Source: Eledone cirrhosa
Lineage: Eukaryota
Reading direction: 5' to 3'
NCBI GenBank assembly: GCA_964016885.1
Contig: OZ024743.1
Location: 315,766,001 to 315,830,000 of the forward strand
Length of the DNA stretch: 64,000 bases
Shown here in pieces: positions 12,180 through 43,780 of the stretch. Positions within the stretch are counted from its first letter, which is position 1; each line of letters begins with the position of its first letter. A program made the translations under genes and the position numbers. The notes under the pieces are model-generated. The model made no database searches and was not told where the DNA came from. It was given only the letters and a program-made list of their open reading frames with translations.

Positions 12180-12252
<73 letters not shown>

Positions 12253-12377
12253 ATGTAGAAAGGTCACACGCGAGTTGATATATATAAAAACAAATAGTAG
12301 AAAGGAAAAAGATTTTTTCAGTAGAAAATGCTGAAGGGATTTTTTCAGTGAAATATCAAAACATTTACAATTTATTT

Positions 12378-12415
12378 ACAATACAGGTTTCAGCATTAAA
12401 TGCATTGTCAATTGC
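12378..12415 (-). ncRNA. HHR with U3-A8 core variant
   Basis: GCAA-UUGACAA-UGCAUUUAAUGCU-GAAA-CCUGUA-UUGU. Confidence 0.65.
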
Positions 12416-12509
12416 GGATATGCAAAATATATTGTTAAGTTGTATATTTGTACAAATATGTATGTGAAACGTGTATGTGAAAACTAATTTTTCTTCCGCT
12501 CTCTATTCC

Positions 12510-12540
<31 letters not shown>

Positions 12541-12548
12541 GTTATTAC

Positions 12549-15500
12549 TTTTTGAGTCTCAGTCATTGATGTTAGTTAACTGGAAAGTTTGTTGAAATGA
12601 ATATCAAGCCACTACCTGCAGCCTCAGATATTAAGGACGTATCGGAGGGTTCTTGCTGTTCCCAGCAAGCATCCCCTTTGAAGCGTTCCAAAAGCGTGAA
12701 GGGGCCAATTTTCTTTAACCATCTCTGGAAACTTTTTGAGATAGTCCCTAGTGCGCCTATGACAATCGTGATCAATTTGACTTCATGGCAGTTCCAAATC
12801 CTTTTTACCTCCCACTTTAAGTCCTGCTATCGGTTAATTTTCTCCCTCTTCTTCTCTTGCACTCTCGTGTCGAATGGGCAGGCCACATCCACAATCAGGC
12901 ACGATCTTTTTTCCTTGTCCAAAACCACCAGGTCAGGTCTATTGTGTTCCAGTTTCTTGTCCGTCTGTATCCTAAAATCCCACAACACCTTCACCTGATC
13001 GTTTTCTATCACCACCTCTGGCTTATGCTCATACCACTTCTCAGAATGTGGTAAATTGTTTACTTTGCATAGGTGCCAGTGGATCACCCTGCCCATCACA
13101 TCATGTCTCCAGCCTTTATACACTCGGATACAATGTGAGCCACAGTCGCCTCTCTCTCTCTCTCTCCACAGATCCTGCACAGTGGGCTAGCCTCCTCCTT
13201 GTAAATGTGGTGTTTCAACCACTTCGTTTTGAGGGCCTGCTCCTGTCAACCATTAACATTCCTTCTGTAGCCTTTTTAAGGCCTCCTCTTTTCAACCAGT
13301 TCCATGTCTGTGGATCTCTAAATTCAATTTTCTCAAAGAAGGTACTATGAAGGGATTTTTCCTGAAGGCTTCTCTTTCTCCTTGATGTTATTTCCTCCTT
13401 GGACATCCCCTGGCCTATTGTCCCCTCCTTCAGTACAGTTCTGAGCATTGGCTCCTTACTATCAGTCACGTATTTGTGTAGGTTGTTTTTCTCCATCTGA
13501 ACACAGTCCTCTATGCTGATAAGACCTCTTCCACCTTCAGATCTCCTTAAGTAGAGTCTATCGACATCACTCCTCTTGTGGAACATATTGTAGATAGTCA
13601 ATAGCTTCCTAGACTTCCTATCCATTTATTTTTGTTCAGCAACATTCCATCTCAGAATTCCCGCACTGTACCTAATAATAGACACAGCTCGGGAATTTAC
13701 TGCACTTATGGCATTCCTACTGTTCAGATGTGACTTTAATACGCTCCTTACTCTCTGAAGGTATTCAGTTCTTATCAATTCCTTCATTTTTTTGTTCTTG
13801 ATGTCATCAGCCTCCAGAACGCCCAAATACTTGTATCCTTCCTCAGAGTCAATTTCCTTTATCATCTCACCTGTTGGTACCTGGATTCCGTTACTTCTGC
13901 TCAACATACCCATCCTCATCACAATGACTCCACACTTACTAATACCAAATTGCATACATATATCATTGCTGAAAATACGGACAGTGTCAACAAGCACATC
14001 CAACTCCTTCTCACTCTTCCCGAAGAGCTTAAGATGGTCCATGAAGAGGAGGTGATTGATGGTAAGCCCTCCCTTTCCCAACCCGTATCCTGCTCTCACT
14101 TCTCGCAGTACACTGGTCAGGGGCATCAGGGCAAGGACAAACAACAGAGGGGACAGACTATCTCCCTGGAAGATACCTCTCTTGATCTTCACGCTTCCCA
14201 AGGATTCTCCAGTTGATGTTAACTCTGTTTCCCAGGACTTCATACTTTTGCCCAACAACTGTTTGATGTTATCTGCCACCTTGAAGATCTCCAGGCTTTT
14301 GGTGATCCAAGAATGAGGCACCATTTCAAATGCCTTTTTGTAGTCTATCCATCCCATGGCAAGACCAGTGTGTCTCCTCCTGCAATTCCTCATTACCATC
14401 TTATCAATAAGTAACTGGTCCTTTGTACCACGTGACTTCTTTCGGCATCCTTTCTGTTCGTCCGGTAACAAGTTGTTTGTGTGGAGGTGATGGTAGATTT
14501 CCTCAGACATAATGCCTGTCAACAGTTTCCACATTACGGACAGACATGTGATAGGTCTATAGTTGGTAACATCATTAACCTTGATTCGGTCTTTCATTAT
14601 CAGAACTGTTGTACCTTTTGTCAACCACTCTGGTACCTCACCTGACATCAAGCAGTCATTGAACATGGTTGTCAGTTTCGGGTAGAGGGATGTTATGTTT
14701 TTAATCCAATACCCCTGCACACCATCTGGGCCAGGTGATTTCCAGTTGGTTAGTTTTTTGGCCTGCCCCTTAAGAGTTTCAACTGTGATACTCAAATCAG
14801 TTTTTTGGTGTGCCTGTTCACTGATCTCCTTCTGTACTGTCTCAATCCACACTGCCTGGTCATTATGTTTAACATCCTGCTCCCATATTCCTCTCCAGAA
14901 TGTTTTAGTTTGTTCCGCCTCAGGGATCAAGTCGTTGCCTCTTTCTTTCCCTTCAAGCCGTCCAAACAGCATCTTCTGGTTATTGTCGAACATGCGGTAC
15001 TGTCTATACTGACTGACTCTGTTCTCGTATCGCCTGATTTTTGCACTCTTTGCTACAATGCGTGCTTCAGTTCCTCTATGATAATATTTAGCTTTTTCCT
15101 CCTAGTTTTGTTCTTTATTTCCAGTCTATTTTTAGTGTCTGTTTTTTAGTGTCCCATTCAGTAGGGACTCAAGCTTTCCAATGTCATTTCTCATTTCCCT
15201 GATTTGATCACTCAGTCGTTTCTTCCACCAAGGCTCTGCCCTTTCTTGTCTGTTGTTTCCTCTCGGTTTTATACCAAGTAGTTTCCTCACCGTATTTGCT
15301 GTTGCTTTGAGGATATTGTTGCACTGGTGAAGGCTCCTCGCCTCAAGGTATGGGATGACTTTGTTTACCTTAGCTATTGTTTCTTTTAACTTTTTCCTGT
15401 CTACAAATCTTAGGTTCATAGGTCTCCCACTATCATTGTTCAATTCATCCACCACTAAGTTTAGGATATCTACCAAATCTTGTCCTAGCCCGTCAGCATT

Positions 15501-16200
15501 CATCTCCTTAGTGGCCGTATCTCTGTTCCAGGTATTATTTTTCTCAGCATTCAGATCATTGTCTGTTTCGGGTGGTTCCTCCGTTCTCTCGACCTCTTCA
15601 CCTTCCTTTCCCACTGGCTCGTTTCCCTGGCATACTCCACCCTCCATCTCCAAGGTAATCTCTCTGCTCAGTTCCTCCAGTTCCAGCTTGCTTATCCACC
15701 CATTAGTTCTTATTACCCGAGCCTGCCCGGCCAATTTTTGTTCATCTAATTTAAATGGACCAATCTCGTTCCAGATGTTATGCATCCTTTTCCTATAGCC
15801 TTTCTCCTTGGTGTTACTCTTCAGGTAACATTGCATAACAGTTCTACTCAATTCTTTCGTCCAGTTGGTTCTGGTCCCTTTCCTTCTTCTTCTTCCTCCG
15901 ACACCAGCAGTATTTGGTTGACAGCCAGGTCCCTGCTGCTGAGCCAGGGAGCACCTGTTGGGTGAGAGTCTGTCACATGACATTCTAGTCTCCATTTAAC
16001 CGTTATTCGAACTGTTTAGGTTCGACATTTAAACACTCTTATCGAGGATTGGCGAATGTATGGTTTCATAACCACCGGTGAATTACTTGTCTCCGGTGGT
16101 TTCGTCACTCCACGTGACCTTTGTGTGGCATTATCACGCTGTAGACGAACCCAAATAAACAAACAAACAAACAGGCAGAAAAAACCCCAAAAATGAATAA
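12549..16200 (-). mobile_element. R4/Dong-like non-LTR retrotransposon (RT plus restriction-like endonuclease), family A, near full length, disrupted
   Basis: ORF pieces 15132-15995, 13626-14993, 13215-13625, 12827-13180, 12572-12775. NYRPITCL, GIFQGDSLSP, HLLFMDHLK, NRPDLVV. The 3' end abuts (TAT)n. The 5' limit is approximate. Confidence 0.88.
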
Positions 16201-16344
16201 GTATAAGTTTCATTGTAATGTAGTGTTTGAATGTCTGACTTAGTTTTTCCCTTCCCTTCTCTGTCCGTCCGTTTGTTTTTCTCTTCATTTTTATTTCCTT
16301 TACGTTTTTCGTTGTTGCTCTGCTGCTTTGATTTTTATTTTTGT

Positions 16345-18543
16345 TTTTTTTTATTTTGACCGGCTCATCAATTCAGTCTATTTATATATGTTGATGCCTT
16401 CCTCTTTTAGTGAGAATTCTACAATGTAGCAGGGGCTAGCGGGAGAGTATAGCGGCGGTAGTGACAATGAGGCAGCGGCGATGGCGGTGCTGTGCCAGCA
16501 GCAACTAGCAGGAGGTAGTGGGAGAGAATAGCGGCGGTAGCGATAATGAGGCAGCGGCGGTGGCGATGTGGTCGTATTACTGTAGCGATGGTGTTGAAGA
16601 TGGAGTAGAAATTTGAGTCGACTTGACCAGAGTTTTCATCGTGGCAGTGGTGGTGGCACTGGTGGTGAAATTATCTTTAGTGAAATTCTCATTAGTCGCG
16701 TATATGTGTTGACATATTTCTTAGTATTGGAATTAAACATTTTGTTAAAACTAAAACTTGATTTTTATTTTTGTTTTTTTTTTATTTTGACCGGGTCATC
16801 AATTCAGTCTATTTATATATTTTGATGTTTTCCTCTTTTAGTGAGAATTCTACAATGTGGCAGGGGGTAGCGGGAGAGAATAGCGGCGGTAGTGATATTG
16901 AGGCAGCGGCGGCGGTGGTGGTGGCGGTGCTGTGCCAGCAGCAACTAGCAGGAGGTAGTGGGAGAGAGTAGCTGCTGTAACGATAATGAGGCGCTGGTGG
17001 TGGTGATGATGTGGTCGTATTACTGTAGTGATGGTGTTGAAGTTGGAGTAGAAATTTCAGTCGACTTGATCAGAATTTTCATCGTGGTAGTGGTGGTGGT
17101 ATTGGTGGTGAAATTATCTTTAGTGAAATTATCATTAGTCGTGTATATGTGTTGACATATTACCTTAATATTGGAATTAAACATTTTGTTAAAACTAAAA
17201 CTTGATTTTTATTTTTTATTTTTTTTTAATTTTTATTTTGACCAGGTCATCAATTCAGTCTATTTATATATTTTGATGTTTTCCTCTTTTAGTAGGAATT
17301 CTACAATGTAGCAGGGAGTAGCGGGAGAGAATAGCGGCGGTAGTGATATTGAGGCAGCGGCGGTGGTGGTGGTGGCGGTGCTGTGCTAGCAGCAACTAGC
17401 AGGAGGTAGTGGGAGAGAATAGCGGCGGTAACGATAGTGAGCCAGCGGTGGTGGTGATGTGGTCGTATTACTGTAGCGATGGTGTTGAAGATGGAGTAGA
17501 AATTTGAGTCGACTTGACCAGAGTTTTCATCGTGGCAGTGGTGGTGGCACTGGTGGTGAAATTATCTTTAGTGAAATTCTCATTAGTCGCGTATATGTGT
17601 TGACATATTTCTTAGTATTGGAATTAAACATTTTGTTAAAACTAAAACTTGATTTTTATTTATTTTTTTTTTTTATTTTGACCGGGTCATCAATTCAGTC
17701 TATTTATATATTTTGATGTTTTCCTCTTTTAGTGAGAATTCTACAATGTAGCAGGGGGTAGCGGGAGAGAATAGCGGCGGTAGTGATATTGAGGCAGCGG
17801 CGGCGGTGGTGGTGGCGGTGCTGTGCCAGCAGCAACTAGCAGGAGGTAGTGGGAGAGAGTAGCTGCTGTAACGATAATGAGGCGGTGGTGGTGGTGATGA
17901 TGTGGTCGTATTACTGTAGTGATGGTGTTGAAGTTGGAGTAGAAATTTCAGTCGACTTGATCAGAGTTTTCATCGTGGTAGTGGTGGTGGTATTGGTGGT
18001 GAAATTATCTTTAGTGAAATTATCATTAGTCGTGTATATGTGTTGACATATTACCTTAATATTGGAATTAAACATTTTGTTAAAACTAAAACTTGATTTT
18101 TTTTTTTTCTTTTTTTCTTTTTTTATTTTGACCAGGTCATCAATTCAGTCTATTTATATATTTTGATGTTTTCCTCTTTTAGTAGGAATTCTACAATGTA
18201 GCAGGGAGTAGCGGGAGAGAATAGCGGCGGTAGTGATATTGAGGCAGCGGCGGTGGTGGTGGTGGCGGTGCTGTGCTAGCAGCAACTAGCAGAAGGTAGT
18301 GGGAGAGAATAGCGGCGGTAACGATAGTGAGGCAGCGGTGGTGGTGATGTGGTCGTATTACTGTAGTGATGGTGTTGAAGTTGGAGTAGAAATTTCAGTC
18401 GACTTGATCAGAGTTTTCATCGTGGTAGTGGTGGTGGTATTGGTGGTGAAATTATCTTTAGTGAAATTATCATTAGTCGTGTATATGTGTTGACATATTA
18501 CCTTAATATTGGAATTAAACATTTTGTTAAAACTAAAACTTGA
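16345..18543. repeat. Tandem repeat of about 445 bp, five units, with an 891-bp higher-order period
   Basis: Units start at ttttattttgacc near 16353, 16784, 17235, 17675, 18125. Matching track ORFs are 891 bp apart. Confidence 0.9.
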
Positions 18544-18961
18544 GGCAATAGTAATAGTAATTATTATTATTATGCTGAGATTGGTGGTGGTGGTGGTGAA
18601 ATTGCCGTTATCTGGCTGTTGTGTTTAGTGTACACAGAGGGGTGATGGGGTACGTGGTGTATCTAGTTTCTGATGTTGGTGAAATTGCTGTTATTTGGCT
18701 GTTCTATATAGTGTAGACAGGGGGGGTTTTCTTCCATTTATAACGATTTTCAATTTTGAATATAAAATGCATAATACAAAATTGAATATTTGAGCGATAT
18801 AACAATATATTGTGGATCCGAATTTTTTGGGACTCAAGCCGGATGTTTTATGCAACATTTGTACTAAGAATTGTTATTTCACAATTGATTTAAATATGTT
18901 AAAAAATCAAAACTTACGGGAGCGATTTCTCGACCTTCTATCCACCATGTGTGTCTTCTTC

Positions 18962-19007
<46 letters not shown>

Positions 19008-19224
19008 GGCGACCTACGTAGTAAATCGTATCATCGTGAGCTCCGCAAAGGTTTGTTATTTTCAGTTATTTAAAATTGCCATGTATGGAAAAAATGTTAT
19101 TGTTAACCATATATAAGTACACATACATTGATTTCTGAAAAGGACACTCAAAAATATTGGGGCCTTGAGCCCAAAATTTAAACTTTTTATAATTATCAGA
19201 CAAAAATGTTTTCTTTGAAAAATA

Positions 19225-21147
19225 ATGGATGACTCAGATTCACTCCTTCCTCACAATCCAACACCTCACACCGACACCACCATTGTAAACATTGCTACGT
19301 TTGCCAACACTGGAATATTAAGCAGTAGCAATATTATTAATTTGTCTCAGGCAGAAGTTCATTTCCCGCCATTACCAATGACTGCAGGTGTTAAAGCCGC
19401 CACCACCACCACCACCACAGTGACAACAGAAACAAAAGAAAAAAATAAATTAACTCATGATATCGAAATGAATTCAACCAAAATGAACTCTTCCACACCG
19501 AACACCACTGACGCCACCACAACTGAAACTAAAATTAACAATAGCAAAAAAAACGATAATAACAACAGCAACAATGAAATTAAGAAAACTACCCTGAGTT
19601 TTGCCAGAGTAGCAAAAACGTGCGAAGCGATCCAGGTAACTCAGGAAGAATTAGACGAAGCCAAAGGAATGATGAAGAAAGAAGGGTACAGGGTCAGCCC
19701 CCACCCCCACACCTAATAAAATGGAGCAACGTCGCCTATGCACAGTGTCTTATCGGACAATAAACATAAAATCGCGCCGAGTGGAACGGGCATCTGAGTC
19801 CCAAATCCAAAAAGCTTTGGGACATGTGTGGGCAAGAAAAACTCACATCAGACATGGGCAGAAGTATGGAACCGTGGACGTGTTCTTTGAAACACCACAG
19901 GAGGCCAGAGAACACTCCATGGCCCCATTAAAAAGTGACGACTTCACACTCATCCCAAGCTATTGTGGCCAGAGTCTTGTGAAGATCAGGGTAACCCACG
20001 TTCCACCGGCCATCGAAATTCCCTGGCTAATGGCTGCCGTCCTCTCCGGCATCGAGGCAAACACCAAAATAATAGAAATAGCAAAAGAAAAGCGGGAGAA
20101 CTGGTCCGGATCTGGGATGGAGCTCCTGATCCAAGCGGACCATAAAAGCATTGAGGAGATCCCAGAGGTAATAGACCTCACTGACGGCAGCCACCTCACC
20201 GTAATCGTCGAGGGCAGAAGACCTAGGTGTGTCGTTTGTGGTGAAGGAACCCACCTAAGGGCTTTCTGCCCTCAGGCTAAAAGGTTGAGGCCACCTCTCT
20301 TACCCACCCCAGTGACTCAACCATCAACACCACCAGCAGCAGAAATAGCAGCAACAACTGTAGCAGCAACAACAGAAGCAACTGTAACAGCAACAACCCC
20401 AGCAACAGTAGCAAAACCAACACCACCACCACCCAACGCCCCAGAACTAGCACCAGCGCCTACACCATCCACCACGCCACAACCAAAACCAACGCCTGTG
20501 GAGGATTTTCCACTCCCCAGCTTATCGCAACTGGAGACAGATTGTGACGACGAGGAGTGGGAAACGGTATGAGGAAAAAAAAAAAAAAAAGAAACCAAAA
20601 AAGAAAAAATTCTCTTCCTTCCCCCTCAAAAAACAAAATACAGAGGGGAACAAATAAATTATCGAACAAGAAAGTTAAGACAGATATGCCACCATCCACA
20701 CCAGCATCACCAACCCCATCACCACAAACACCAACACCATCACCATCATTAACCCCAACACCACCATCACCAACACCACAAAAGTCACCAAAAAGCGTAA
20801 CAGAAACAAACCCACAACAAACGCAAACAAAACAAAACAACCAAAACGATACACACTACACAGCATTAAATTTGAACAACAACCAATTATTACACTACAT
20901 GCAACACAACACCAGCATCACAGAAAAAGACTACAAAACAACCCAAAAGTTCACACCACCTCCACACATACAAATCACTCGCATCACACAGAAAACGTAC
21001 ACGACACTAACACAAAAATTCCCCAAAGACATCGGATACTTCCGACAAACACTCTCCAGGAGGATTTATAAGGACATTCTTCCGGAGGAGGCCACAAGCA
21101 GTGAAAAGGATGGACAAACCATCCTTCCTCTACGAGAAGTAAGGTAA
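19225..21147 (+). pseudogene. Tx1 ORF1 (gag-like zinc knuckle), frameshifted
   Basis: RRPRCVVCGEGTHLRAFC (CX2CX4HX4C), Pro/Thr-rich segments. Confidence 0.8.
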
Positions 21148-21181
21148 GTGGTCTTTCCCATCTTTTCCACTCCATTTCAAC

Positions 21182-24100
21182 ATGACCTCACTCAGAATAG
21201 GCAGTATAAATGCGCGTGGCTTGGGGTCGTCATGGAAGCAGGGCCACCTGCTCAACGACCTCAGGTCACTAAACATAGATGTAGTGGCCATCAGCGAGAC
21301 CAGAATCTCCGAAGCACAGGCCTTCGCACCGATCTTCGGCGGCTACGATGTGTACGCATCTCCCAGCTGTCCGGGATCGGGGGGAGGAGTTGCTGTGCTT
21401 TTTCGGAGAGGTTTGGATCTCGCCATACGAGCCATCTTCCTGGACCCAGAAGGTAAGTTGGTGTTGCTAGACATGACCAGCGGAGACGGGCAAGCTTTCA
21501 GGCTAGTGGCCGTCTATGCCCCGACAGGAGCAGGGCGGCCTGATTTCTTCCGGCGTCTGGAGACCTTTCTTGGAACGTCCCGCTCTTTAGTGTTCGTGGG
21601 CGACTGGAACGGGATCTTAGATGAACGCTGGGACTGTGTGGGATTAGCGGATAGGGGAGGAGGGTGCAAGAGCCTCACCAACCTTCTCAGGCGTTTTGAA
21701 CTGTCTGACAGGTACCGATTGTATTTCCCGAATGTGCCAATGTGGACTTGGACAAATCGCATAGGGTCATCCAGATCATATCTAGATAGAGTATTTTGTA
21801 GAGAAATAGATAGGTCTAGCATAGGCTGTCCACAATTCAAGATAGTCAGCTACACGGACCACAAATTCGTAATCTGTGTACTTGACTTAGATAGGCTTCA
21901 TAGACGAGGACCCGGCTACTGGAAGCTAAACGCGTCCTTACCAGCGCGCAAGGCCCACAGAGACCGGATTAGCGAACTAGTTAAGCGGGCGTTGACGGGG
22001 GCCATCTTCAACAACAAGTGGTGTTTTGCTCTGAAAAGAGCAATTAGAATAGAGTCCATTAGGTTTAGTAAGGCTTTAGCAATAGAGAAAAATAGAGCAG
22101 AGGGAGAATTAGTTAGAAAATTAGATGAGGCGCTTAGCAAAGGCATCGCGACCGACGTACTTGCGGCGAAATTGGCCCTTGACCAATTCTTCAATGCAAA
22201 GCACGAAGGCTGCGTTGTCAGAGCTAGGGTGCGTGCTCTCAGACACGAGGGGACGAAAGCCGTTCAATGGGCCCGAGTGGCGGAGGGGCATCGTGGCAAT
22301 AAAGCCACGATCCGGTCTTTGGTGGACCACGACGGGCGCATGCTACTCGATCCCGGGCAAATGTGTAAAGCTTTTCAGCGACACTTCGCTCAGTTGTTCG
22401 GGGGCAGCGGCGGGCCGGATCGAGGGATGGACTTTAGTGTCTACCTCGACGGACTGCCGCGGCTTTCAGCCACTGAGGCGGAGTGTTGCGAAAAGCCGAT
22501 AACAGCCGCTGAAGTACGGGAGGCAATGACTAGCTGCACAAGGGGTAAATCGCCTGGTTTGGATGGTCTGCCATATGAACTTTACGTACAGATGCCAGAC
22601 TTGTTCGGAGGCCTCTTGGCGGACGTCTACTGCAACTGGCAACAGAACGGGAGAATTTCCAGCTCTGTGAGCCGAGGAGATGTGGCGCTGCTGAGAAAGG
22701 ATCCGAACAAGGGGGATAACATAGATAATTTTAGGCTCATAACTCTGCTAAACACAGAGTTCAAGATATTGGCCAAGGTGCTAGCAAAGAGGTTGGCGCT
22801 TGTCGTTGGTGGTCTGGTGGGAGAGGCGCAGACATGCGCCATTCCCGACAACCTCCACCTCATGTGATACATCGTAGAGAGGGTAGCTAGGGAACCTGGC
22901 ACGGATGGGTCCTTGATCAATTTAGATCAGTCGAAAGCTTTCGATAGGGTCGACCATCGTTACCTAGCGGCAGTCCTGAGGGCGGCTGAATTTGGGCCCG
23001 TCTTCAGAGGTTGGATCGCTGCCATGCACAGCGACATCTGCTCTGTGGTGAGAGTGAACGGTCACCTTTCGGAACCGTTCAACATCATGCGCTCGGTCCG
23101 CCAAGGATGTCCCCTCTCGTCCCTCTTGTACGTATTGACTCTCGAGCCATTACTGCACAAACTGGAGACGTTGAGGGGGGGGGGTCCCGCGCGAACTACG
23201 ATGCGGAAGGTCCGTGTCAGCATATGCGGACGATGTCACCGTAGTGGTGTCGAACGCCAAACACATCGAGGTGATCGCCACTACACTAAGAGAATACGAA
23301 GCGGTGACAGGAGCAATGATCAACCAGGAAAAGTCAGTGGGCCTGCAGCTCGGCACCTGGAGAGGCAGGTCCATGCCGTCCAACAGCGTCGTCGGGTGCT
23401 TGACGGACGGACCAGTTAAATTGCTCGGGGTCTGGTTCGGTCCGGATCTCCAGACGGACAAAAACTGGGACGAGGTGACGAGCAGGGTGGCTTCTCTCAC
23501 CCAGAAATGGGCCGAGAGGAAGCTATCCCTGAAAGGTCGAGCGGAGGTGGCTAACGCGTATATCGCGTCCGTTATCTACTACTGTCTGACCGTCGTACCT
23601 TGTCCTAAGCCCCGCCTGACTGCGCTGGAGCGTTTGCTCTTTCGCTTTTTGTGGAAGAGACGCGCTCCGATGGTCAAGCGGTCCATCTGCTGTCAACACC
23701 CGCTACGTGAAGGGCTGGGAATGTCGTGGCTGATGATGCGCAGACACGCGCTCAGGCTACGACATCTCCACCTCTTCCTCGACGGTGATCAGGTGTGGTC
23801 TCCGTTTGCTAGACACGTCTTTTCCCAGCTCGTGTCCTTGACGGAGCTGCAGTCCTGGGTCAAGCGAAGACCGAGAGGGAGCGCTTGGAGACTAGAATGT
23901 CTTCAGGCGCTCACAGCCGTCGACCAATCGGGCAATGTGATCGGTGGAAACTCCACGTTCTATAGAGGATTAGTGGAAGGGAAGAGCGACGACGTACTGG
24001 GGAAACTCTAGGCGTCGACGAAAATCAACTAGCCAATCTCTTCGGAAGAACTTTCGGGCCGGGGCCTATGGACAACTTCCAGAAATCCCTGGCCTGGCAG

Positions 24101-24582
24101 TGCTACCGAGGAGCTTTGCCAGTTCGAGATAACTCTACAAGCATGGAGGTGCCGTCAGCCGGGCATGTCCGTGATGCGTGCAGGGCGACGAAACCGTCCT
24201 GCACGCACTTGTCCAGTGTCCGAGCATTGCTGACTTGTGGGTTTATGTCGAACACCTGCTGTCGAGTGTGGGACGGATCCAGCTATCAGCTGAGTCCATC
24301 GTGAGGATTGCCCCGCCCTCTTCCTTTAGCCGGGAAGGGCAGGCAGTTTTTATCTGTCTGGTGGCCATGGCGAAAGAGATAGTATGGTGGACACGTTTGA
24401 AAGGGCTGAAGACGAGCACTTACCTCTTCGGTGATGCCCTGATTGACTTTTTCAAATTTCATTTGAAAAGGAAAATCAGAGTAGAGAGGGAAGTGCTCTC
24501 TTCCCAGCATTTTGTTGAAAGATGGGTGAGAGAAGCAAGAATGGCCCGAGTGAATGGGCCTACTCTGAGTACGTATATGTAA
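21182..24582 (+). pseudogene. Tx1 ORF2 (AP endonuclease-RT-zinc finger), disrupted
   Basis: INARGL, ISET, GDWN, LDRVF, YTDH, QGCPLS, AYADD. Confidence 0.9.
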
Positions 24583-24849
24583 ATTAAATTTGGAAAACTG
24601 GGAGAGGGCACTTACCTTGGTGGTCGGGGTTATTGTGGCCTTTTACTGGGCTTTCTCCACAAATATCCCTCCAAAGTCTCCCCCCTATTGGCGAATTTTT
24701 CATTGTTATTTTTTTGTTACATCCTCTGTTTTTGTTTTTTACACGCAGAAATGCCCATTAGTACCGTCCTGTATTGTCCTGCACTGTCATTAATGTCTAC
24801 TGTATGTAAACCCTTGTGGTTAATAAAGAAATCATTATTATTATTATTA

Positions 24850-29601: not shown

Positions 29602-29658
<57 letters not shown>

Positions 29659-29659
<1 letters not shown>

Positions 29660-30303
29660 TCATTTTTCTTGCTTTATGGAAGTGCCGTCAGCCGGACCTG
29701 TCCGAGATGCGCACAGAGCGACGAAACCGTTGTGCACGCACTCGTTCAGTGTCCGATCATTGCTGAGTGCATTGTGCAGATAGCCCCACCGTCCTCCTTT
29801 AAGGAGGAGGAAGGGCAGAGAGTTTTCATCTGCTTGGTGGCCATGGCGAAAGAGATTGTATGGTGGACAAGGTTGAAAGGATTGAAGACGGACACTTTCC
29901 TCTTCGGCGAATCCCTGATTAACTTTTTCAAATTTCAGGGTGGAGAGACAAGGCTGTCTTCAAATAAATTTGTTGAAAGGTGGGTGAAAGTGGTGAGTCT
30001 GGTCCGAGTGAACGGGCCCGCTCTGAGTATGCGCCTGTAGACTGAGGAGTGGAAAACTGAGAGAGGGCGCTTGCCCTGGTGGTCAGGGTGGCCGTGGTCG
30101 TTTGTGTGGTTTTCGCCACGAGTGACCCTCGGAAGCTTCCCCACCATTGGGGAATTTTCTGTTGTTTGAATTTTTTGGATATTTCTATCTTCCTGTTATA
30201 ACCTTTTTTTCACGGCCAAAACCCATTTTGTAACGACCTGTACCGTTCTGTGCTATCTGTAATGTTTTTCTTCATGTTAGCACTTGTGGCCAATAAAGAA
30301 ACC
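29659..30303 (+). mobile_element. 3' fragment of a Tx1 element related to family C
   Basis: CPRC..DETVVHALVQC..MAKEIVWWTRLKG, flanked by (TAT)n. Confidence 0.85.
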
Positions 30304-30340
30304 ATTATTATCATTATTATTATTATTATTATTATTATAA

Positions 30341-30530
30341 GGGCGGTGGATTGGCAGTATCGGTAGAGAGTCGGACGCCATGCTTTGACGCATAGAGTTA
30401 CGGCCCTTGTCATTCTGAGTTCAAATCCCACCGAGGTTAACTTTGCCTTTCATCCTTATGGGTTCGATTAAATAAAGTACCAGTAATGTACTGGGATAAT
30501 TGCTGGCTTTGTGCCTAAAGTAGAAACAAT
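30341..30530 (+). mobile_element. tRNA-derived SINE with (TAT)n tail
   Basis: A box TGGCAGTATCGG, B box GAGTTCAAATCC, body gcctttcatcc..gataaaataaagtaccagt. Many copies in the window. Confidence 0.85.
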
Positions 30531-30540
30531 TATTATTGTT

Positions 30541-33500
30541 CTTTGAGTCTCAGTCATTGATGTTAGTTAACTGGAAAGTTTGTTGAAATGAATATCAAGC
30601 CACTACCTACAGCCTCTGATATTTAGGACGTAACGGAGGGTTCTTGCTGTTCCCTGCAAGCATCTCCTTTGAAGTGTTCCAAAAAGCGGGGTGGGGCCAA
30701 TTTTCTTTAACCATCCCTGGAAACTTTTTGAGATAGTACCTAGTGCGCCTATGACAATCGGGACCACTTTGACTTCATGGCAGTTCCAAATCCTTTTTAC
30801 CTCCCACTTTAAGTCCTGCTATCGGTTAATTTTCTCCCTCTCCTTCTCTTGCACTCACTCTCGTGTCGAATGAGCAGGCCACATCCACAATCAGGCACGA
30901 TCTTTTTTCCTTGTCCAAAACCACCAGGTCAGGTCTATTGTGTTCCAGTTTCTTGTCCGTCTGTATCCTAAAATCCCATAGCACCTTCACTTGATCGTTT
31001 TCTATCACCGACTCTGGCTTATGCTAATACCACTTATCAGAATGTGGTAAATTGTTTACTTTGCATAGGTGCCAGTGGATCACCCTGCCGATCACATCAT
31101 GTCTCCAGCCTTTATAGTGAGTCTGGGCTAGGTGTTTACACTCGGATACAATGTGAGCCACAGTCGCCTCTCTCTCTCTCCACAGATCCTGCACAGTGGG
31201 CTAGCCTCCTCCTTGTAAATATGGTGTTTCAGCCACTTCGTTTTGAGGGCCTGCTCTTGCGCAGCCATTAGCATTCCTTCTGTAGCCTTTTTAAGGTCTC
31301 CTCTTCTCAACCAGTTCCATGTCTGTGGATCTCTGAATTCCGTTTTCTCAAAGAAGGTACTATGAAGGGATTTTTCATGAAGGCTGCTCTTTCTCCTTGT
31401 TGTTATTTCCTCCTTGGACATCCCCTGGTCTATTGTCCTTTCCTTCAGTACAATTCTGAGTATTGGCTCCTTACTATCGGTCACGTATTTGTGTAGGTTG
31501 TTTTTCTCCATCTGAACACAGTCCTCTATGCTGATAAGACATCTTCCACCTTCAAATCTCCTTAAGTAGAGTCTATCGACATCACTCCTCTTGTGGAACA
31601 TATTGTAGATAGTCAATAGCTTCCTAGTCTTACTATCCATTTCTTTTTGTTCAGCAACAAAAATTCAGAATTCCCGCACTGTACCTAATAATAGATATAG
31701 CTCGGGAATTTACTGCACTTATGGCATTCCTACTGTTCAGATGTGACTTTAATACGCTCCTTACTCTCCGAATGTATTCAGATCTTATCAATTCCTTCAT
31801 GTTTTTGTTCTTGATGTCATCAGCCTCCAGAATACCCAAATACTTGTATCCTTCTTAAGTGTCAATCTCCTTTATCATCTCAGCTGTTGGTACCTGGATT
31901 CCGTTGCTTCTGCTCAATTTACCCCTCTTCATCACAAGGACTCCACACTTACTAATACCAAATTGCATACATATATCATCGCTGAAAATACGGACAGTGT
32001 CAAAAAGCACACCCAACTCCTTCTCACTCTTCCTGAAGAGCTTCAGATCATCCATGAAGAGGAGGTGATTGATGGTAAGCTCTCCCTTTCCCAACTCGTA
32101 TTCTGCTCTCACTTTTCGCAGTATAATGGTCAGGGGCATCAGGGCAAGGACAAACAACAGAGGGGACAGACTATCTCCCTGGAAGATACCTCTCTTGATC
32201 TTCACGCCTCCCAAGGATTCTCCAGCTGATGTTAATTCTGTTTTCTAGGACTTCATACTTTTGCCCAACAACTGTCTGGTGTTATCTGCCACCTTGAAGA
32301 TCTCTAGGCTTTTGGTGATCCAAGAATGTGGCACCATGTCAAATACCTTTTTGTAGTCTATCCATCCCATGGCAAGACCAGTGTGTCTCCTCTTGCAATT
32401 CCTCATTACCATTTTATCAATAAGTAACCAGTCCTTTGTACCACGGGACTTCTTTCGGCATCTTTTCTGTTCGTCCTGTAACAAGTTGTTTATGTGCAGG
32501 TGATGGTAGATTTCCTCAGACACAATGCTTGTCAACAGTTTCCACATTACGGACAGACATATGATAGGTCTATAGTTGGTAACATCATTACCCTTGATTC
32601 GGTCTTTCAGATCTCTGGTACCTTTTTGTCAACCACTCTGGTACCTCACCTGACATCAATCAGTCATTGAACATGGTTGTCAGTTTCGGGTGGAGGGATG
32701 TTACATTTTTAATCCAATACCCCTGCACACCATCTGGGCCAGGTGATTTCCAGTTGGTTAGTTTTTTGGCCTGCCCAATAAGAGTTTCAACTGTGATACT
32801 CAAATCAGTTTGTTGGTGTGCCTGTTCACTAATCTCCTTTTGTACTGTCTCAATCCACACTGCATGGTCATTATGTTTAACATCCTGCTCCCATATTCCT
32901 CTCCAGAATGTCTTAGTTTGTTCCGCCTCAGGGGTCAAGTCGTTACCTCTTTCTTTCCCTTCAAGCCGCCCAAACAACATCTTCTGGTTGTTGTCAAACA
33001 TACGGTTCTGTCTATACTGACTGACTCTGCTCTCGTATCGCCTAATTTTTGCACTTTTTGCTACAATGCGTTGCTTCAGTTCCTCTATGATAATATTTAG
33101 CCTTTTCCTCCTAGTTTTGTACTTTATTTCCAGTCTATTTTTAGTGTCTATGTTTTTTAGTGTCCCATTCAGTAGGGACTCAAGCTTTCCAATGTCATTT
33201 CTCATTTCCCTGATTTAACCATTCAGTCGTTTCTTCCACCAAAGTTCTGATCTTTCTTGTTTGTTGTTTCCTCTCGCTTTTATGCCAAGTAATTTCCTCA
33301 CCGCATTTGCTGTTGCTTTGAGGATATTGTTGCACTGGTGAAGGCTCCTCGCCTCAAGGAATGGGATGACTTTGTTTACCTTAGCTGTTGTTTCTTTTAA
33401 CTTTTTCCTGTCTACAAATCATAGGTTCATAGGTTTCCAACTATCATTGTTCATTTCATCTACCACTAAGTTTAGGATATCAACCAAATCTTGTCCTAGC

Positions 33501-33646
33501 CCGTCAGCATTCATCTCCTCAATGGCCGTATCTTTGTTCCAGGTATTATTTATTTCAGCATTCAGATCATTGTCTGCTTCGAATGGTTCCTCCGTTCTCT
33601 CAACCTCTTCACCTTTATTTCCCACTGGGCTGTTTGCCTGGCATAC

Positions 33647-33647
<1 letters not shown>
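30541..33647 (-). mobile_element. R4/Dong-like family A copy 2, 5'-truncated
   Basis: Highly similar to 12550-15635, FMDDLK, (TAT)n at both ends. Confidence 0.9.
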
Positions 33648-33682
<35 letters not shown>

Positions 33683-33689
33683 TTATTAA

Positions 33690-33865
33690 ATGGCAGTATC
33701 GGTAGAGGGTCGGACGCCATGCTTTCCAGCATAGTTACGTCCCTTTACGATCTGAATTCAAATCCCGCCGAGGTTGACTTTGCCTTTCATCCTTACGGTG
33801 TCGATAAAATAAAGTACCAGTAATGCACTGGGTAATTGCTGGCCTTGTGCATAAAGTAGAAACAA
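33690..33865 (+). mobile_element. tRNA-derived SINE
   Basis: Same family as 30341. Confidence 0.85.
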
Positions 33866-33886
33866 TTATTATTATTATTATTATTA

Positions 33887-35575: not shown

Positions 35576-35578
<3 letters not shown>
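33887..35578 (-). mobile_element. R4/Dong-like family B copy 2, 5'-truncated at the YMDD motif
   Basis: Open frame 34031-35578 with CRVC..H..C and RPDIIL..IDMS..K..KY, (TAT)n on both sides. Confidence 0.9.
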
Positions 35579-35624
<46 letters not shown>

Positions 35625-38600
35625 GGCGACCTACGTAGTAAATCGTATGATCGTGAGCTCCGCAAAGGTTTGTTATTTCCGTTTGTTAAAAATTGCCATT
35701 TATGGAAAATTTTATTGTTAACTGTTTATAAGCACACATACATTGTTTTCCGAAAAGGACACCCAAAAAGATTGGGGCCTTGTGCCCAAAATTTAAACTT
35801 TTATTATTATCAAAAAATTTCTTTGAAGAAAATGGCTAATTCACCTCAGCAACAAGCAGCTGAAAGCCTTCCTCACAAATTAACACCTCACACCGACACC
35901 ACCATTGTAAATGTTACTACGTTTGCCAACACAAAAAAAAATATAAGCAGTAGCAATATTTTAAATTTGTCTCAGGCAGACATTCATTTCCCGCCATTAC
36001 CAATGACTGCCGGTGTTAAAGCCTCCACCACCACCACCACCACCACCACCGCGACAACCACCACCCCCACCACCACCGCGACAACAGAAACAAAAGAAGA
36101 AAAAAATAAATTAACTCGTGATGTCGAAATGAAATCAAGCAAAATGGACTCTTCCCCACCAAAGACGACTGACGTCACCACCACCACAACTGAAACTAAA
36201 ATTAATATTAACGATAGCAACAACAACAACAATGAAATTATAACCCCCCCCCCCTCAGTTTCGCCAGAGTAGCAAAACAATTCGAAGCATTTACGGTAAC
36301 TCAGGAAGATTTAGAAAATGCCAAACAAATGGTAAAGAAAGATGGGTACATGGTCAGCCTCCCCCCCCCCACACCTAATAAAATGGAGCATCGGAGCCTA
36401 TGCACCGTGTCGTATAGAACAATAAATGTAAAATCGCGCCGAGTGGACGGGCATCCGAGTCCCAAATCCAAAAAGCTTTGGGACATGTGTGGGCAAGAAA
36501 AACCCACATCAGACGTGGGCAAAAGTATGGAACCGTGGATGTGTTCTTTGAAACACCAGAGGAGGCTAGAGAACACTCCATGGCCCCATTAAAAAGTGAC
36601 GACTTCACACTCGTCCCAAGCTATTGTGGCCAGAGACTCGTAAAGATCAGGGTGACCCACGTTCCACCGGCCATCGAAATTCCCTGGCTAATAGCGGCTG
36701 TCATCGCCGGCATCGAAGCCAACACGAAAATAATAGCAATAGCAAAAGAAAAGCAGGAAAACTGGTCCGGATCTGGGATGGAGCTCCTGATCCAAGCGGA
36801 CCAAAAAAGCATTGAGGAGATCCCAGAGGTAATAGACCTCACTGACGGCAGCCACCTCACGGTAATTGTCGAGGGCAGAAGACCTAGGTGTGTCGTTTGT
36901 GGTGAAGGAACCCACCTAAGGGCTTTCTGCCCTCAGGCAAATAGGTTGAGGCCACCTCTCCTACCCACCCCAGTGACACAACCATCAACACCACCAGTAG
37001 CAGAGATGGCAGCAACAACTGTAGCAGCAACAACAGAAGCAACTATAACAGCAACAACCCCAGCAACAGTAGCAAAACCAACACCACTACCACCACCAGC
37101 AAAACCAACACCACCACCACCCAACGCTTCAGAACTAGCACCAGCGCCTACACCATCCACCACACCACAACCAAAACTAACGGCTGTGGAGGATTTTCCA
37201 CTCCCCGGCCTATCACAACTGGAGACAGATTGTGACGACGAGGAGTGGGAAACGATATCCGGAAAAAAAAAAGAAACCAAAAAAGAAAAAATTCTCTTCC
37301 TTCCCCCTCCAAAAACAAAATACAGAGGGAAACAAATAAATTAAGAAACAAAAAAGTTAGGACAGATATGCCACCATCCACACCAGCATCACCAACCCCA
37401 TCAACCCAAACACCAACACCATCACCATCATTAACCCAGCACCACCATCACCTACACCACAAAAGTCACCAAAATGCGAAACAGAAACAAACCCACAACA
37501 AACGCAAACAAAACAAAACAACCAAAACGATACACACTACACAGCATTAAATTTGAACAACAAGCAATTATTACACTACATCCAGCACAACACCAGCATC
37601 ACAGAAAAAGACTACACAACAAATTCACACCACCTCCACACATACAAATCACTCGCATCACACAGAAAACGTACATGACACTAAAACAAAAATTCCCCAA
37701 AGACATCGGAGACTTCCGACAAGCACTCTCCAGGAGGATTTATAAGGACATCCTTCCTGAGGAGGCCACAAGCAGTGAAAAGGATGGAAAAACCGTCCTT
37801 CCCCTACGAGAAGTAAGGTAAGTGATCTTTCCCATCTTTTCCACTCCTTTTCAACATGACCTCACTCAGAATAGGCAGCATAAATGCGCGTGGCTTGGGG
37901 TCGTCATGGAAGCAGGGCCACCTGCTCAACGACCTCAGGTCACTAAACATAGATGTAGTGGCCATCAGCGAGACCAGAATCTCCGAAGCACAGGCTTTCG
38001 CACCGATCTTCGGCGGCTACGATGTGTACGCATCTCCCAGCCGTCCGGGATCGGGGGGAGGAGTTGCTGTGCTTTTCCGGAGAGGTTTGGATCTTGCAAT
38101 ACGGGCCATCTTCCTGGACCCAGAAGGTAAGTTGGTGGTGCTGGACGTGACCAGCGGAGACGGGCAAGCTTTCAGGTTAGTGGCCGTCTATGCCCCGACA
38201 GGATCAGGGCGGCCTGATTTCTTCCGGCGTCTGGAGACCTTTCTTGGAACGTCCCGCTCTTTAGGGTTAGTGGGCGACTGGAACGGGATCTTAGATGCAC
38301 GCTGGGATTGTGTGGGATTAGTGGATAGGGAAGGAGGGTGCAAGAGTCTCACCAACCTGCTCAGACGTTTTGAACTGTCTGACAGGTACCGAATGGATTT
38401 CCCGAATGTACCAATGTGGACTTGGACAAATCGCATAGGGTCATCCAGATCATATCTAGATAGAGTATTTTGTAGGGAAATAGATAGGTCTAGCATAGGC
38501 TGTCCACAATTCAAGATAGTCAGCTACACGGACCACAAATTCGTGATCTGTGTGCTTGCTTCATAGACGAGGACCCGGCTACTGGAAGCTAAACGCGTCC

Positions 38601-41506
38601 TTACCAGCGCGCATGGCCTACAGAGACCGGATTAGCGAACTAGTTATGCGGGCGTTGACGGGGGCCATCGTCAACAACAAGTGGTGGTTTGCTCTGAAAA
38701 GAGCAATTAGAATAGAGTCCATTAGGTTTAGTAAGACTTTAGCAATAGAGAAAAATAGAGCAGAGGGAGAATTAGTTAGAAAATTAGACGAGGCGCTTAG
38801 CAAAGGCATCGCGACCGACGTACTTGCGGCGAAATTGGCCCTTGACCAATTCTTCAATGCAAAGCACGAAGGCTGCGTTGTCAGAGCTAGGGTGCGTGCT
38901 CTCAGACACGAGGGGACGAAAGCCGTTCAATGGGCCCGAGTGGCGGAGGCGCGTCGTGGCAACAAAGCCACGATCCGGTCTTTGGTGGACCACGACGGGC
39001 GCATGCTACTCGATCCCGGGCAAATGTGTGAAGCTTTTCAGCGAACTTCGCTCAACTGTTCGGGGGCAGTGGCGGGCCGGATCGAGGGATGGACTTTAGT
39101 GTCTACCTCGACGGACTGCCGCGGCTTTCAGCCACTGAGGCGGAGTGTTGCGAAAAGCCGATAACAACCGCTGAAGTACGGGATGCAATGACTAGTTGCA
39201 CAAGGGGTAAATCGCTTGGTTTGGATGGTCTGCCCTATGAACGTTACGTACAGATGCCAAACTTGTTCGGAGGCCTCTTGGCGGATGTCTACTGCAACTG
39301 GCAAATGAACGGGAGAATTCCCAGCTCTGTGAGCCGAGGAGCGGTGGCGCTGCTGAGAAAGGATCCGAACAAGGGGGATAACATAGATAATTTTAGGCCC
39401 ATAACTCTGCTAAACACAGAGTTCAAGATATTGGCCAAGGTGCTAGCAAAGAGGTTGGCGCTTGTCGTTGGTGGTCTGGTGGGAGAGGCACAGACATGCG
39501 CCATTCCCGACAGATCCATCCACGGCAACCTCCACCTCATGCGATACATCGTAGAGAGGGTAGCTAGGGAACCTGGCACGGGTGGGTCTTTGATCAATTT
39601 AGATCAGTCGTAAGCCTTCGATAGGGTCGACCATCGTTACCTAGCGGCAGTCCTGAGGGCGGCTGGCTTTGGGCCCGTCTTCAGAGGCTGGATCGCTGCC
39701 ATGCACAGCGACATCTGCTCTGTAGTGAGAGTGAACGGTCACCTTTCGGAACCGTTCAACTTCATGCGCTCGGTCCGCCAAGGATGTCCCCTCTCGTCCC
39801 TATTGTACGTATTGACTCTCGAGCCATTACTGCACAAACTGGAGACGTTGAGGGGGGTCCCGCGCGAACTAGGATGCAGAAGATCCGTGTCAGCATATGC
39901 CGACGATGTCACCGTAGTGGTGTCGAACGCCAAACACATCGAGGCGATCGGCACTACACTAAGAGAATACGAAGCGGTGACAGGAGCAATGATCAACCAG
40001 GAAAAGTCAGTGGGCCTGCAGCTCGGCACCTGGAGAGGCAGGTCCATGCCGTCCAACAGCGTCGTCGGGCGCTGGACGGACGGACCGGTTAAATTGCTAG
40101 GGGTCTGGTTCGGTCCAGACCTCCAGACGGACAAAAACTGGGACGAGGTGACGAGCAGGGTGGCTTCTCTCACCCAGAAATGGGCCGAGAGGAAGCTATC
40201 CCTGAAAGGTCGAGCGGAGGTGGCGAATGCGTACATCGCATCCGTCATCTACTACCGCCTGACCGTCGTACCTTGTCCTAAGCCCCGCCTGACTGCGCTG
40301 GAGCGTTTGCTCTTTCGCTTCTTGTGGAAGGGACGCGCTCCGATGGTCAGGCGGTCCATCTGCTGTCAACACCCGCTACGTGGAGGGCTGGGCATGCCGT
40401 GGCTGATGATGCGCAGACACGCGCTCAGGCTACGAAATCTCCACCTCTTCCTCGACGGTGATCAGGTGTGGTCGCCGTTTGCTAGACACGTTTTTCCCCA
40501 GCTCGTCTCCTTGACGGAGCTGCAGTCCTGGGTCAAGCGAAGACCGAGAGGGAGCGCTTGGAGACTGGAATGTCTTCAGGCGCTCACAGCCCTCGACCAA
40601 TCGGGCAATGTGATCGGTGGAAACTCCATCTTGGCGTTCTATAGGGGATTAGTGGAGGGGAAGAGCGACGACGTACTTGGAGAAACTCTAGGCGTCGACG
40701 AAAATCAACTAGCCAATCTCTTCGGAAGGACTTTCGGGCCGAGGCCAATGGACAACTTCCAGAAATCCCTGGCCTGGCAGTGCTACCGAGGAGCTTTGCC
40801 AGTTCGGGATAAACTCTACAGGCATGGAGGTGCCGTCAGCCGGGCATGTCCGAGATGCGCGCAGGGCGACGAAACCGTCCTGCACGCACTCGTCCAGTGT
40901 CCGAGCATTGCTGACTTGTGGGTTTATGTCGAACACCTGCTGTCACGTGTAGGACGGATCCAGCTATCAGCTGAGTCCATCGTGAGGATTGCCCCGCCCC
41001 CTTCCTTTAGCCGGGAAGGGCAGGCAGTTTTTATCTGTCTGGTGGCCATGGCGAAAGAGATAGTATGGTGGACACGTTTGAAAGGGCTGAAGACGAGCAC
41101 TTACCTCTTCGGTGATGCCCTGATTAACTTTTTCAAATATCATTTGAAAAGGAAAATCAGGGTAGAGAGGGAAGTGCTCTCTTCCCAGCATTTTGTTGAA
41201 AGATGGGTGAGAGAAGCAAGTATGACCCGAATGAATGGGCCTTCTCTGAGTATGTGTCTGTAAATTAAAGGTGGAAAACTGGGAGAGGGCACTTGCCCTG
41301 GTGGTCAGGGCCACTGTGGTCTTTTAATGGGCTTTCTCCACAAATGTCCCTCGGAAGTCTCCCCCCAATTGGGGAATTTTTCTTTGTTACTTTATTTCAA
41401 CCTCTGTTTTTTTTACACGCAGAAATGCCCATTTGTACCGTCCTGTATTGTCCTGTACTGTCCTTAATGTCTACTTTATGTAAACCCTTGTGGTTAATAA
41501 AGAAAA

Positions 41507-41507
<1 letters not shown>
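35625..41507 (+). mobile_element. Tx1/L1-clade LINE family C copy 2, full length, disrupted
   Basis: Same termini as 19008-24833. ORF1 about 35832-37821, ORF2 37856-41263 in pieces. Confidence 0.92.
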
Positions 41508-41538
<31 letters not shown>

Positions 41539-41629
41539 CGGGGTCGATAGAATAAAGTACCAGTAATGCATTGGGTAATTGCTGGCCTTGTGCAAAAAGT
41601 AGAAACAATTATTATTATTATTATTATTT

Positions 41630-42405
41630 CATTTTATCTTGCTTTATGTTCATACGAGTTATCACCAAATCACAACCAGTGACCTCAAGAGACAACAAGG
41701 TCCGCCATGTTCAAGAAAGAATACATACACACATACATGTATTTTAGGTGTTTAGACCTGTGATGTATTTATATTGACAGAATCTTCCTTAGTATATGGG
41801 CAGTTCCCATTAGTACTATATTTTGTATTTCTTCTATACGCGGGTTTCCTGGAATTTGGGATAAGTAATCATTAGACCCCTTAGGTATCATTCCTTGATC
41901 GCCCACAACCATTGGTATTGTTTTAGTTCTCAACTGCCACATTTTTCCAATCTCTATCTCCAGGTCTTAATACTTGCTCAATTTTTAAAATGTTTTTATA
42001 GATACATTCTTGTCTATTGGAACGGACATATCACTTAGCATACATACTTTTTTTTAAAGTCCTTCTGTATTATATCAGGTATTTGCATCTATTTTTCGGT
42101 CTGTTTGGATGCTAAAGATTGAGATGTGATCTTTTTCAAGTACGGGAGGTGGTTGATGCTCCCACCAATTCTTTTGATGGGGAAGGTCAAAATGCTTACA
42201 CATTACCCAGTGTATGTGTTGTGCAGCTCTGTCGTGCCTGTTTAGGTATTCGATTGGAGCTATAGGACTGCACATTGAAATTATATGATCAATGGTCTCG
42301 GTTGTTTTTTACATACACGGCATAATAGCCATTTTTTTATTATTTTGGCTTGATAATTTTTTGTTGGCAGACACAGTCTGCCAACATCCAGAGGGTGCCA
42401 ACCAC
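41630..42405 (-). mobile_element. Diverged 3' fragment of Dong-like family B
   Basis: Similar to 33890-34720, preceded by a SINE 3' half at 41538-41608. Confidence 0.85.
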
Positions 42406-42432
42406 TTATTACTATTATTATTATTATTATTT

Positions 42433-42620
42433 AGGGCCGTGGATTGGCCGTATCGGTAGAGGGTCGGACGCCATGCTTTCCAGCATAGTTACGTCCCTTT
42501 ACGATCTGAGTTCAAATCCCGCCGAGGTTGACTTTGCCTTTCATCCTTACGGTGTCGATAACATAAAGTACCAGTAATGCACTGGGTAATTGCTGGCCTT
42601 GTGCCTAAAGTAGAAACAAT
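42433..42620 (+). mobile_element. tRNA-derived SINE
   Basis: Same family as 30341. Confidence 0.85.
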
Positions 42621-42685
42621 TATTATTATTATCATTATTTTCACTATTTGTACAAATATGCAACTTAACAATATTCTGCATATCC

Positions 42686-42723
42686 GCAATTGACAATGCA
42701 TTTAATGCTGAAACCGGTATTGT
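42686..42723 (+). ncRNA. HHR with U3-A8 core variant
   Basis: GCAA-UUGACAA-UGCAUUUAAUGCU-GAAA-CCGGUA-UUGU with palindromic stem III ACCGGU. Confidence 0.7.
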
Positions 42724-42767
42724 AAATAAATTAATGTTTTGATATTTCACTGAAAAAATCTTTTTTC

Positions 42768-42809
<42 letters not shown>

Positions 42810-42848
42810 ACACCAAAGCCTTTTACAAATTTAACACATCTTTGTTTT

Positions 42849-42935: not shown

Positions 42936-43032
42936 TAATTATAAAGTTAATGTAAAAGAGTCCCGCCGCCCTTAGAATGGAGAATATGAATAAAAATAAC
43001 AACAAAAATCATTTTAAACCACAATCTAATAG

Positions 43033-43704: not shown

Positions 43705-43780
<76 letters not shown>

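Follow-up and report, generated by a model that had tools for sequence, protein, structure and literature searches.

Within a 64,000-nucleotide stretch of the Eledone cirrhosa genome (GCA_964016885.1, contig OZ024743.1, positions 315,766,001 to 315,830,000; hereafter the window), we analyzed a 30-kb array of retrotransposons enclosed by two inverted copies of one repeat, each bearing a hammerhead ribozyme (HHR)-like motif. The best reading of this locus, with a probability of roughly 0.7, is that the two copies are the arms of a single Penelope-type inverted insertion unit, which was split and pushed apart by repeated retrotransposon insertion. The arms lie at 12295-12485 on the minus strand and 42639-42772 on the plus strand, 30.3 kb apart, and they are the only two copies of their family in the 64 kb, sitting at both exact ends of the array; no third copy was found in the window using BLASTN with word size 7 or nhmmer with --max (next best nhmmer E 2.6). 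As expected, bacterial and archaeal genomes contained no exact 32-nt match to the family. The window consists of animal DNA rich in AT microsatellites. Penelope-like elements (PLEs) are scattered through it outside the array, and about ten short fold-backs occur beside (TA)n tracts.

The alignment of the two arms by BLASTN (12338-12458 versus 42760-42645) yielded 93.4% identity over 121 columns (E 1e-44), and a local alignment of 12320-12469 with 42639-42771 extended over 133 columns, in which three substitutions (a substitution distance of 2.3%) and five gaps occur. A core of 116 columns contained 3 substitutions and 2 gaps, and a long-gap alignment carried the homology of the left arm to ~12295 and ~12483. 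The original prediction had described inverted, moderately diverged copies; the inverted pair is evident, and the divergence consists mostly of indels, all five gaps being bases absent from the right arm. Both arms are 5'-truncated and inverted with their 3' ends pointing outward, as in the inverted units formed by PLE pseudo-long terminal repeats (pLTRs). No open reading frame (ORF) of the arm family encoding reverse transcriptase (RT) and GIY-YIG domains adjoins either arm, and truncated units lack such an ORF; the arms are read as passive relics in which nothing points to function.

The flanks of the arms are asymmetric. The right arm (42639-42772, plus) is flush on its outer side with a (TA)17 array (42771-42804, detected with TRF; gap of -1 nt) and on its inner side with an (ATT)n tract. 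The left arm is a pLTR-like fragment that, together with ~26 nt of unique, unpaired inner sequence, occupies 12295-12509 (minus). On its outer side, a short (AT)4 lies at a distance of 9 nt, and at ~45 nt there follows a (TA)32 array (12185-12249, TRF), presumably the left half of the Penelope target. This ~45-nt spacer, which includes the (AT)4 (12250-12294, minus), may represent a one-sided "tail" extension, and the candidate would then be a (TA)n insertion extended at one end only. Inward of the unpaired sequence lies (TAT)12 (12510-12547), the 3' tail/target of the first interior element. The arrangement that had been noticed at each arm, with (TA)n outward and (TAT)n inward, was thus recovered with offsets of 9-45 nt (outer) and ~26 nt (inner) on the left. 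The inward tracts are also the tail/target of the outermost elements, so they provide no independent evidence of a seed within an ancestral fold-back. The minus-left/plus-right HHR polarity likewise agrees with that of five nearby fold-backs (3245-3785, 3915-4305, 5025-5163, 7093-10822, and 11176-11901).

The HHR-like motifs are located at 12382-12411 (minus) and 42690-42719 (plus) and exhibit a TTGACAA..GAAA core, a 5-bp stem II, a 4-bp stem I, and a GTA cleavage triplet, an anatomy by which they are minimal type I hammerheads with a U3-A8 core and, as such, putative ribozymes. Stem III is palindromic in the right arm, and the palindrome of the left arm is broken by a substitution at 12385. 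Rfam returned no hammerhead match at either arm and only a weak HH9 match (E 1.5) at a neighboring fold-back, and minimum free energy (MFE) folding supported the monomeric hammerhead conformation for 0 of 5 motifs, the MFE fold of the arms differing from the hammerhead. In the available text of the respective sources, U3-A8 covariation is given as natural hammerhead variation (PMC3088659), and the U3-A8 variant is reported from PLE repeats (PMC4209133). Since the variant is a published one in PLEs, the odd core is a family trait, and we rejected its occurrence in both arms as a mark of shared decay.

Several observations favor one unit over two insertions. None of the window's 68 (TA)≥5 arrays lies inside the 30.1-kb interior, and neither arm has TA on its inward side, whereas three inspected solo fragments (at 4615, 4835, and 57294) have TA on both sides. 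No inverted partner was detected in the inner 300 bp of either arm (scores of 14 and 17 against shuffle maxima of 28 and 29), and in the control pair at 51690-54513 both units have their own inverted partner, with scores of 95 and 132. One TA-flush end combined with one extended end was observed in all 11 other inverted units, and the candidate shows gaps of -1 and 9 nt. Regarding divergence, the arms of ten local fold-backs differ at 28 of 1745 pooled positions (1.6%, range 0-2.9%), while seven independent pairs differ at 90 of 872 (10.3%, range 5.5-19%). The principal competing explanation, which we consider unlikely, is that two insertions of one young Penelope-type family came to flank a pre-existing TAA array independently, their inner partners or TA remnants having been lost. 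Same-family pairs do exist in the window, one of them with identical geometry and 5.5% divergence (51690-54513); the arm substitutions are fewer than inner LINE (long interspersed nuclear element) decay would lead one to expect, and the one-sided gaps could be subfamily differences. Independent insertion, however, requires one family, among the dozen or so counted by eye in the window, to occupy both exact boundaries in inverted orientation; it must also have left no TA on the inside and no partner for either arm, and every one of the seven measured independent pairs is at least 5.5% apart. A second inverted pair spanning the region, at 5754-5794 and 42805-42846, has its TA on the inward side and differs in 4 of 41 columns; it represents independent insertions.

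Other results weigh against the single split unit. The likelihood ratio of ~15 with which the arm distance of 3/133 favors the fold-back class over the independent class is approximate, as the two classes were assigned by inspection. The left extension shrinks to 9 nt if the short (AT)4 counts as target, and a target-site duplication is not readable at the array ends. In the same geometry, one HHR family has two independent units 2.3 kb apart, at 51690-51947 and 54248-54513, each with its own inverted partner; they mimic a split fold-back, so the geometry is not diagnostic. All five gaps fall on one side, in the right arm, and the ratio of gaps to substitutions exceeds that of the fold-backs (P=0.085; P=0.59 in the core). 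Moreover, the substitution clock gives the arms an age of 1.1% each, which is below those of three interior elements described further below, namely A1 and A2 (~2.85% each) and C3 (2.4-4%, from few sites). If the arms were as old as A1 and A2, 7.2 substitutions would be predicted, and 3 are seen (P=0.07, or 0.13 on the 116-column core).

The same age discrepancy also supports a further explanation, an improbable one in our judgment, in which there was one unit and its arms were homogenized later by arm-to-arm gene conversion, or in which the unit formed around an existing array by Penelope-mediated capture of a long cargo. All ten local fold-backs lie within 3%, which could reflect homogenization, and mobilization of host sequence in trans by PLEs is mentioned in the available part of PMC8557442. 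The age gap, however, is not significant (P=0.07-0.13) and disappears once indels are counted, with 8 arm events against 7.6 expected for arms as old as A1/A2. Five unrepaired gaps speak against recent conversion, and a captured 30-kb RNA must extend through elements of either strand and past three AATAAA signals. We find it very hard to believe, in particular, that the array is older than the arms, a Penelope-type integration or inverted-repeat rearrangement having enclosed, and possibly moved, a multi-kilobase array as cargo. This order of events predicts the flush end, the extended end, and TA on the outside only equally well, and the substitution clock leans its way at the P values just given. 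The substitution and indel-inclusive clocks disagree and neither is sharp. Three substitutions place the arm divergence anywhere between 0.5 and 6.6% (95% interval), and the arms are therefore too short to date the start of the nest in the way that had been proposed; at best they date the PLE insertion or the last homogenization and thereby set no more than an upper limit to the start of the array. The inner LINEs are the better clocks.

Returning to the split unit, mobile or repeated DNA accounts for 29,724 of the 30,127 interior bp (98.7%), in 16 mapped parts that comprise six R4/Dong-like pieces, three Tx1-like LINEs, four tRNA-type SINEs (short interspersed nuclear elements), and two unclassified fragments. 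From the left, the (TAT)12 tract is followed by A1 (12548-16190, minus; 5' boundary approximate), a near full-length R4/Dong-like LINE with a Myb-like N-terminus, RT, zinc knuckle, and restriction-like endonuclease (RLE) motif, interrupted by stops and frameshifts. Next come S1 (16191-18962, minus), an unclassified repeat fragment with five tandem copies of a 443-bp unit at 16328-18543, and B1 (19008-24833, plus), a full-length Tx1-like LINE with ORF1 and an ORF2 encoding apurinic/apyrimidinic endonuclease (APE) and RT, which stands between (ATT)15 and (ATT)5. C1 (24849-28706, minus), a full-length but broken R4/Dong-like LINE of a second family, leads to a rearranged junction (28707-28820) containing a 66-bp inverted SINE 3' scrap, then to S2 (28821-29603, minus), the second S-family fragment, and to a composite segment (29660-30303) in which a 19-nt C-family 3' end (minus) and that of b', a diverged Tx1-like element (plus), meet at an ATG microhomology. 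A tRNA-type SINE (SINE 1, 30339-30528, plus), the decayed and 5'-truncated A-family copy A2 (30538-33646, minus), SINE 2 (33688-33864, plus), and C2 (33886-35576, minus) follow, the last being a C copy that is truncated at its 5' end, retains an open frame of 515 aa, and is the least decayed. The right part is made up of B2 (35625-41507, plus), a full-length Tx1-like LINE between (ATT)16 and (ATT)10; the 5'-truncated SINE 3 (41538-41607, plus); C3 (41629-42405, minus), a short C copy that is heavily decayed and derives from another source element; and SINE 4 (42432-42638, plus) with the (ATT)n tail/target tract that abuts the right arm.

Thirteen of the 17 interior boundaries are ATT-type tracts, and 16 of the window's 22 ATT-type arrays lie inside the interior. 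The four tract-free boundaries (A1/S1, both sides of 28707-28820, and 29678) are deletion- or rearrangement-like junctions. In the interior, we found no case of an element cut in two by another. Consequently, the proposal that a fold-back grew by serial nesting held in part: one unit is likely, and truncation points and dN/dS (the ratio of nonsynonymous to synonymous substitution rates) indicate repeated independent insertions at (TAT)n/(TAA)n, but the elements stand side by side and 4/17 boundaries are tract-free. Polarity is uniform in all 13 classified pieces, with six R4-like minus, three Tx1-like plus, and four SINEs plus (crude P 0.001; the count left out the inverted SINE scrap and S1/S2). 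All R4-like copies carry (TAA)n at the 3' end, and all Tx1-like copies and SINEs carry (ATT)n. S1 and S2 each lie directly upstream of full-length R4-like elements of different families, without a clean (ATT)n between. S1 is weakly similar to the 5' end of B1, but an assignment of the S fragments as family B 5' ends was not adopted (S1 scored 48.7 against a shuffle maximum of 38.2; S2 did not exceed the shuffles), and they were left unclassified.

Families A and C share 43% amino acid identity over the RT region. Each has a single ORF with RT (RVT_1 matches), a zinc knuckle (weak zf-RVT match, E 0.0066), and an RLE motif (PD..D, recognized by eye), and their translations are colinear with relatives of 1134 and 1204 aa. 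The model of the A1 N-terminus reached a pLDDT (predicted local distance difference test) above 90 at residues 41-120; its top structural matches were mostly of Myb/SANT type, the best with a middling Z of 6.5 (root-mean-square deviation 2.4, 63 aligned), and Foldseek returned nothing at E≤0.001. With (TAA)n at the 3' end in 6/6 R4-like pieces, A and C fit R4/Dong by predicted domain layout and tail/target. Family B has two ORFs, ORF1 with a CCHC zinc knuckle (by eye) and ORF2 with Exo_endo_phos (APE), RVT_1, and, as the C-terminal zinc domain, zf-RVT matches; we take it to be Tx1-like from this layout and its targeting, and its best named protein match is an Argonauta hians hypothetical protein (66% identity).

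The low dN/dS of B1/B2 (0.32) and C2/C3 (0.33), both under the neutral null, together with their differing truncation points, indicates that these copies come from separate active sources. When dN/dS was compared with neutral simulations, segmental duplication as the source of the paired LINEs was rejected for B1/B2 (0 of 300 runs gave so low a value) and for C2/C3 (0.3%). For C1/C2 the outcome was marginal (4.3%), and for A1/A2 duplication was not rejected by this measure (18.7%), although A2 stops at a (TTA)n tract of its own, as a 5'-truncated insertion would. Divergence between A1 and A2 is neutral (dN/dS 0.63, null 0.50-1.12), and both have an in-frame TAG (12827-12829 and 30819-30821) at the position of a Tyr that is nearly invariant in the K..KY..L motif of relatives. 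The shared stop and the neutral divergence point to descent of both from one defective template, and the sequences suggest that this template was copied in trans. An assembly artefact, with repeats joined via microsatellites, has next to no probability in our view: low-complexity tracts stand at every boundary and several LINE pairs share 92-98% identity, but the copies are individually marked by substitutions, stops, indels, and truncation points of their own, and there are no N gaps. A DNA transposon with 130-bp terminal inverted repeats was rejected by reasoning from the HHRs in the arms, the asymmetric ends, and the mixed-age contents.

A plausible course of events for the split unit would begin with a PLE entering (TA)n in the usual form, as two 5'-truncated pLTR copies placed head to head, with one end TA-flush, a short extension at the other, and an AT-rich junction in the middle. 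A TAA-targeting retroelement may then have hit a short ATT/TAA motif at that middle junction. Target-primed reverse transcription is a known insertion mechanism that would leave microsatellite on both sides as tail and target duplication, the pattern seen in the array. Such tract renewal would offer more target, on which R4/Dong-like LINEs, Tx1-like LINEs, and SINEs could keep landing side by side; the flanks of SINE 4 suggest entry into an already existing tract beside the right arm. Given the opposite polarity of the R4-like and the Tx1-like/SINE tails, RLE-type and APE-type enzymes presumably use opposite strands of a shared tract for priming. Deletions and the fivefold tandem amplification of the 443-bp unit, visible at the level of the junctions, remodeled the array.

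Each component behavior is already published, and no new mechanism is needed. In the available text of PMC8557442 and PMC11167929, PLE inverted units have a tail extension at one end only, and a (TA)n target bias is stated for Naiads and hypothesized for Neptune (PMC8557442, PMC4209133). As far as these two latter sources were accessible, their inverted units resemble ours in the inverted 5'-truncated pLTR copies, the one-end extension, and the (TA)n bias, and their hammerheads in the minimal type I form, the unpaired base at stem II, the palindromic stem III, the U3-A8 core, and the opposite-strand pairs. Unlike the opposite-strand HHR pairs given in the accessible text of PMC4209133, which are 100-700 bp apart, the pair here spans 30.3 kb filled by unrelated elements and lacks an arm-family ORF. 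R4/Dong elements have a (TAA)n target in insects, molluscs, and cnidarians (PMC7998251, available portion), and Dong is reported on TAA and placed under APE-type elements in the accessible part of PMC3812793; in these portions the resemblance to A and C covers the single ORF, Myb-like N-terminus, RT, zinc knuckle, RLE, and (TAA)n as 3' end and target. In contrast to published R4/Dong, two families, putative members of the clade by domain layout and tail/target, here share one tract with APE-type LINEs and SINEs. Kibi and Koshi, microsatellite-targeting Tx1 families described together with the sequential tandem insertion of Tx1-mobilized SINEs (PMC4494074, text available), resemble B as two-ORF APE LINEs flanked by microsatellite, with side-by-side insertions separated by target sequence, but their target is (TC)n or (TTC)n and not (ATT)n. 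Our literature search found no report of a composite locus of this sort, judging from listings with thin subscription coverage and supplements excluded.

The remainder of the window contains further elements of these groups. The PLE at 7093-10822 has an open 891-aa RT and GIY-YIG frame (7563-10235, plus) between 580-bp inverted arms with 12 substitutions (best relative 54%) and is of a different family from the candidate arms. A very different PLE-like ORF (680 aa, minus) with RT-like and GIY-YIG-like motifs by eye lies at 974-3785, with a fold-back at its 5' end; it had no Pfam match at 1e-3 and was absent among 68 relatives of the 891-aa PLE. At 10891-11901, retrozyme-like 312-bp tandem HHR units end in a perfect 347-bp inverted copy (0 substitutions), an array that is probably very recent. 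Two tandem Tx1-like copies (58255-63522 and 63446-64000, minus; 67-70% to B), whose 3' ends abut (AGAT)n, are a related family with a different microsatellite target. A conserved GC-rich 5' untranslated region block common to C1 and a diverged relative outside the array (28500-28690 and 46430-46600) had no Rfam match and could be a structured RNA. At least six further SINE copies outside the array (43028-48119, both strands) end in short ATTAT, indicating that long ATT tracts are a preference of the SINE and not a requirement. A tRNA-like match (30.8 bits) lies at 44910-44979, and copies related to it occur at 44509-44624 and 49289-49430; it probably forms the head of a further SINE family.

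RLE- and APE-type elements that share one tract take strictly opposite polarities, which yields a testable prediction of the strand nicked by each enzyme. If the split-unit reading is true, the empty state would be a fold-back of ~350 bp, and the locus would have undergone a local expansion of ~85-fold via self-renewing microsatellite targets. This would provide a concrete route to a repeat-rich octopod genome, in which the order of insertions would be readable across individuals and species.

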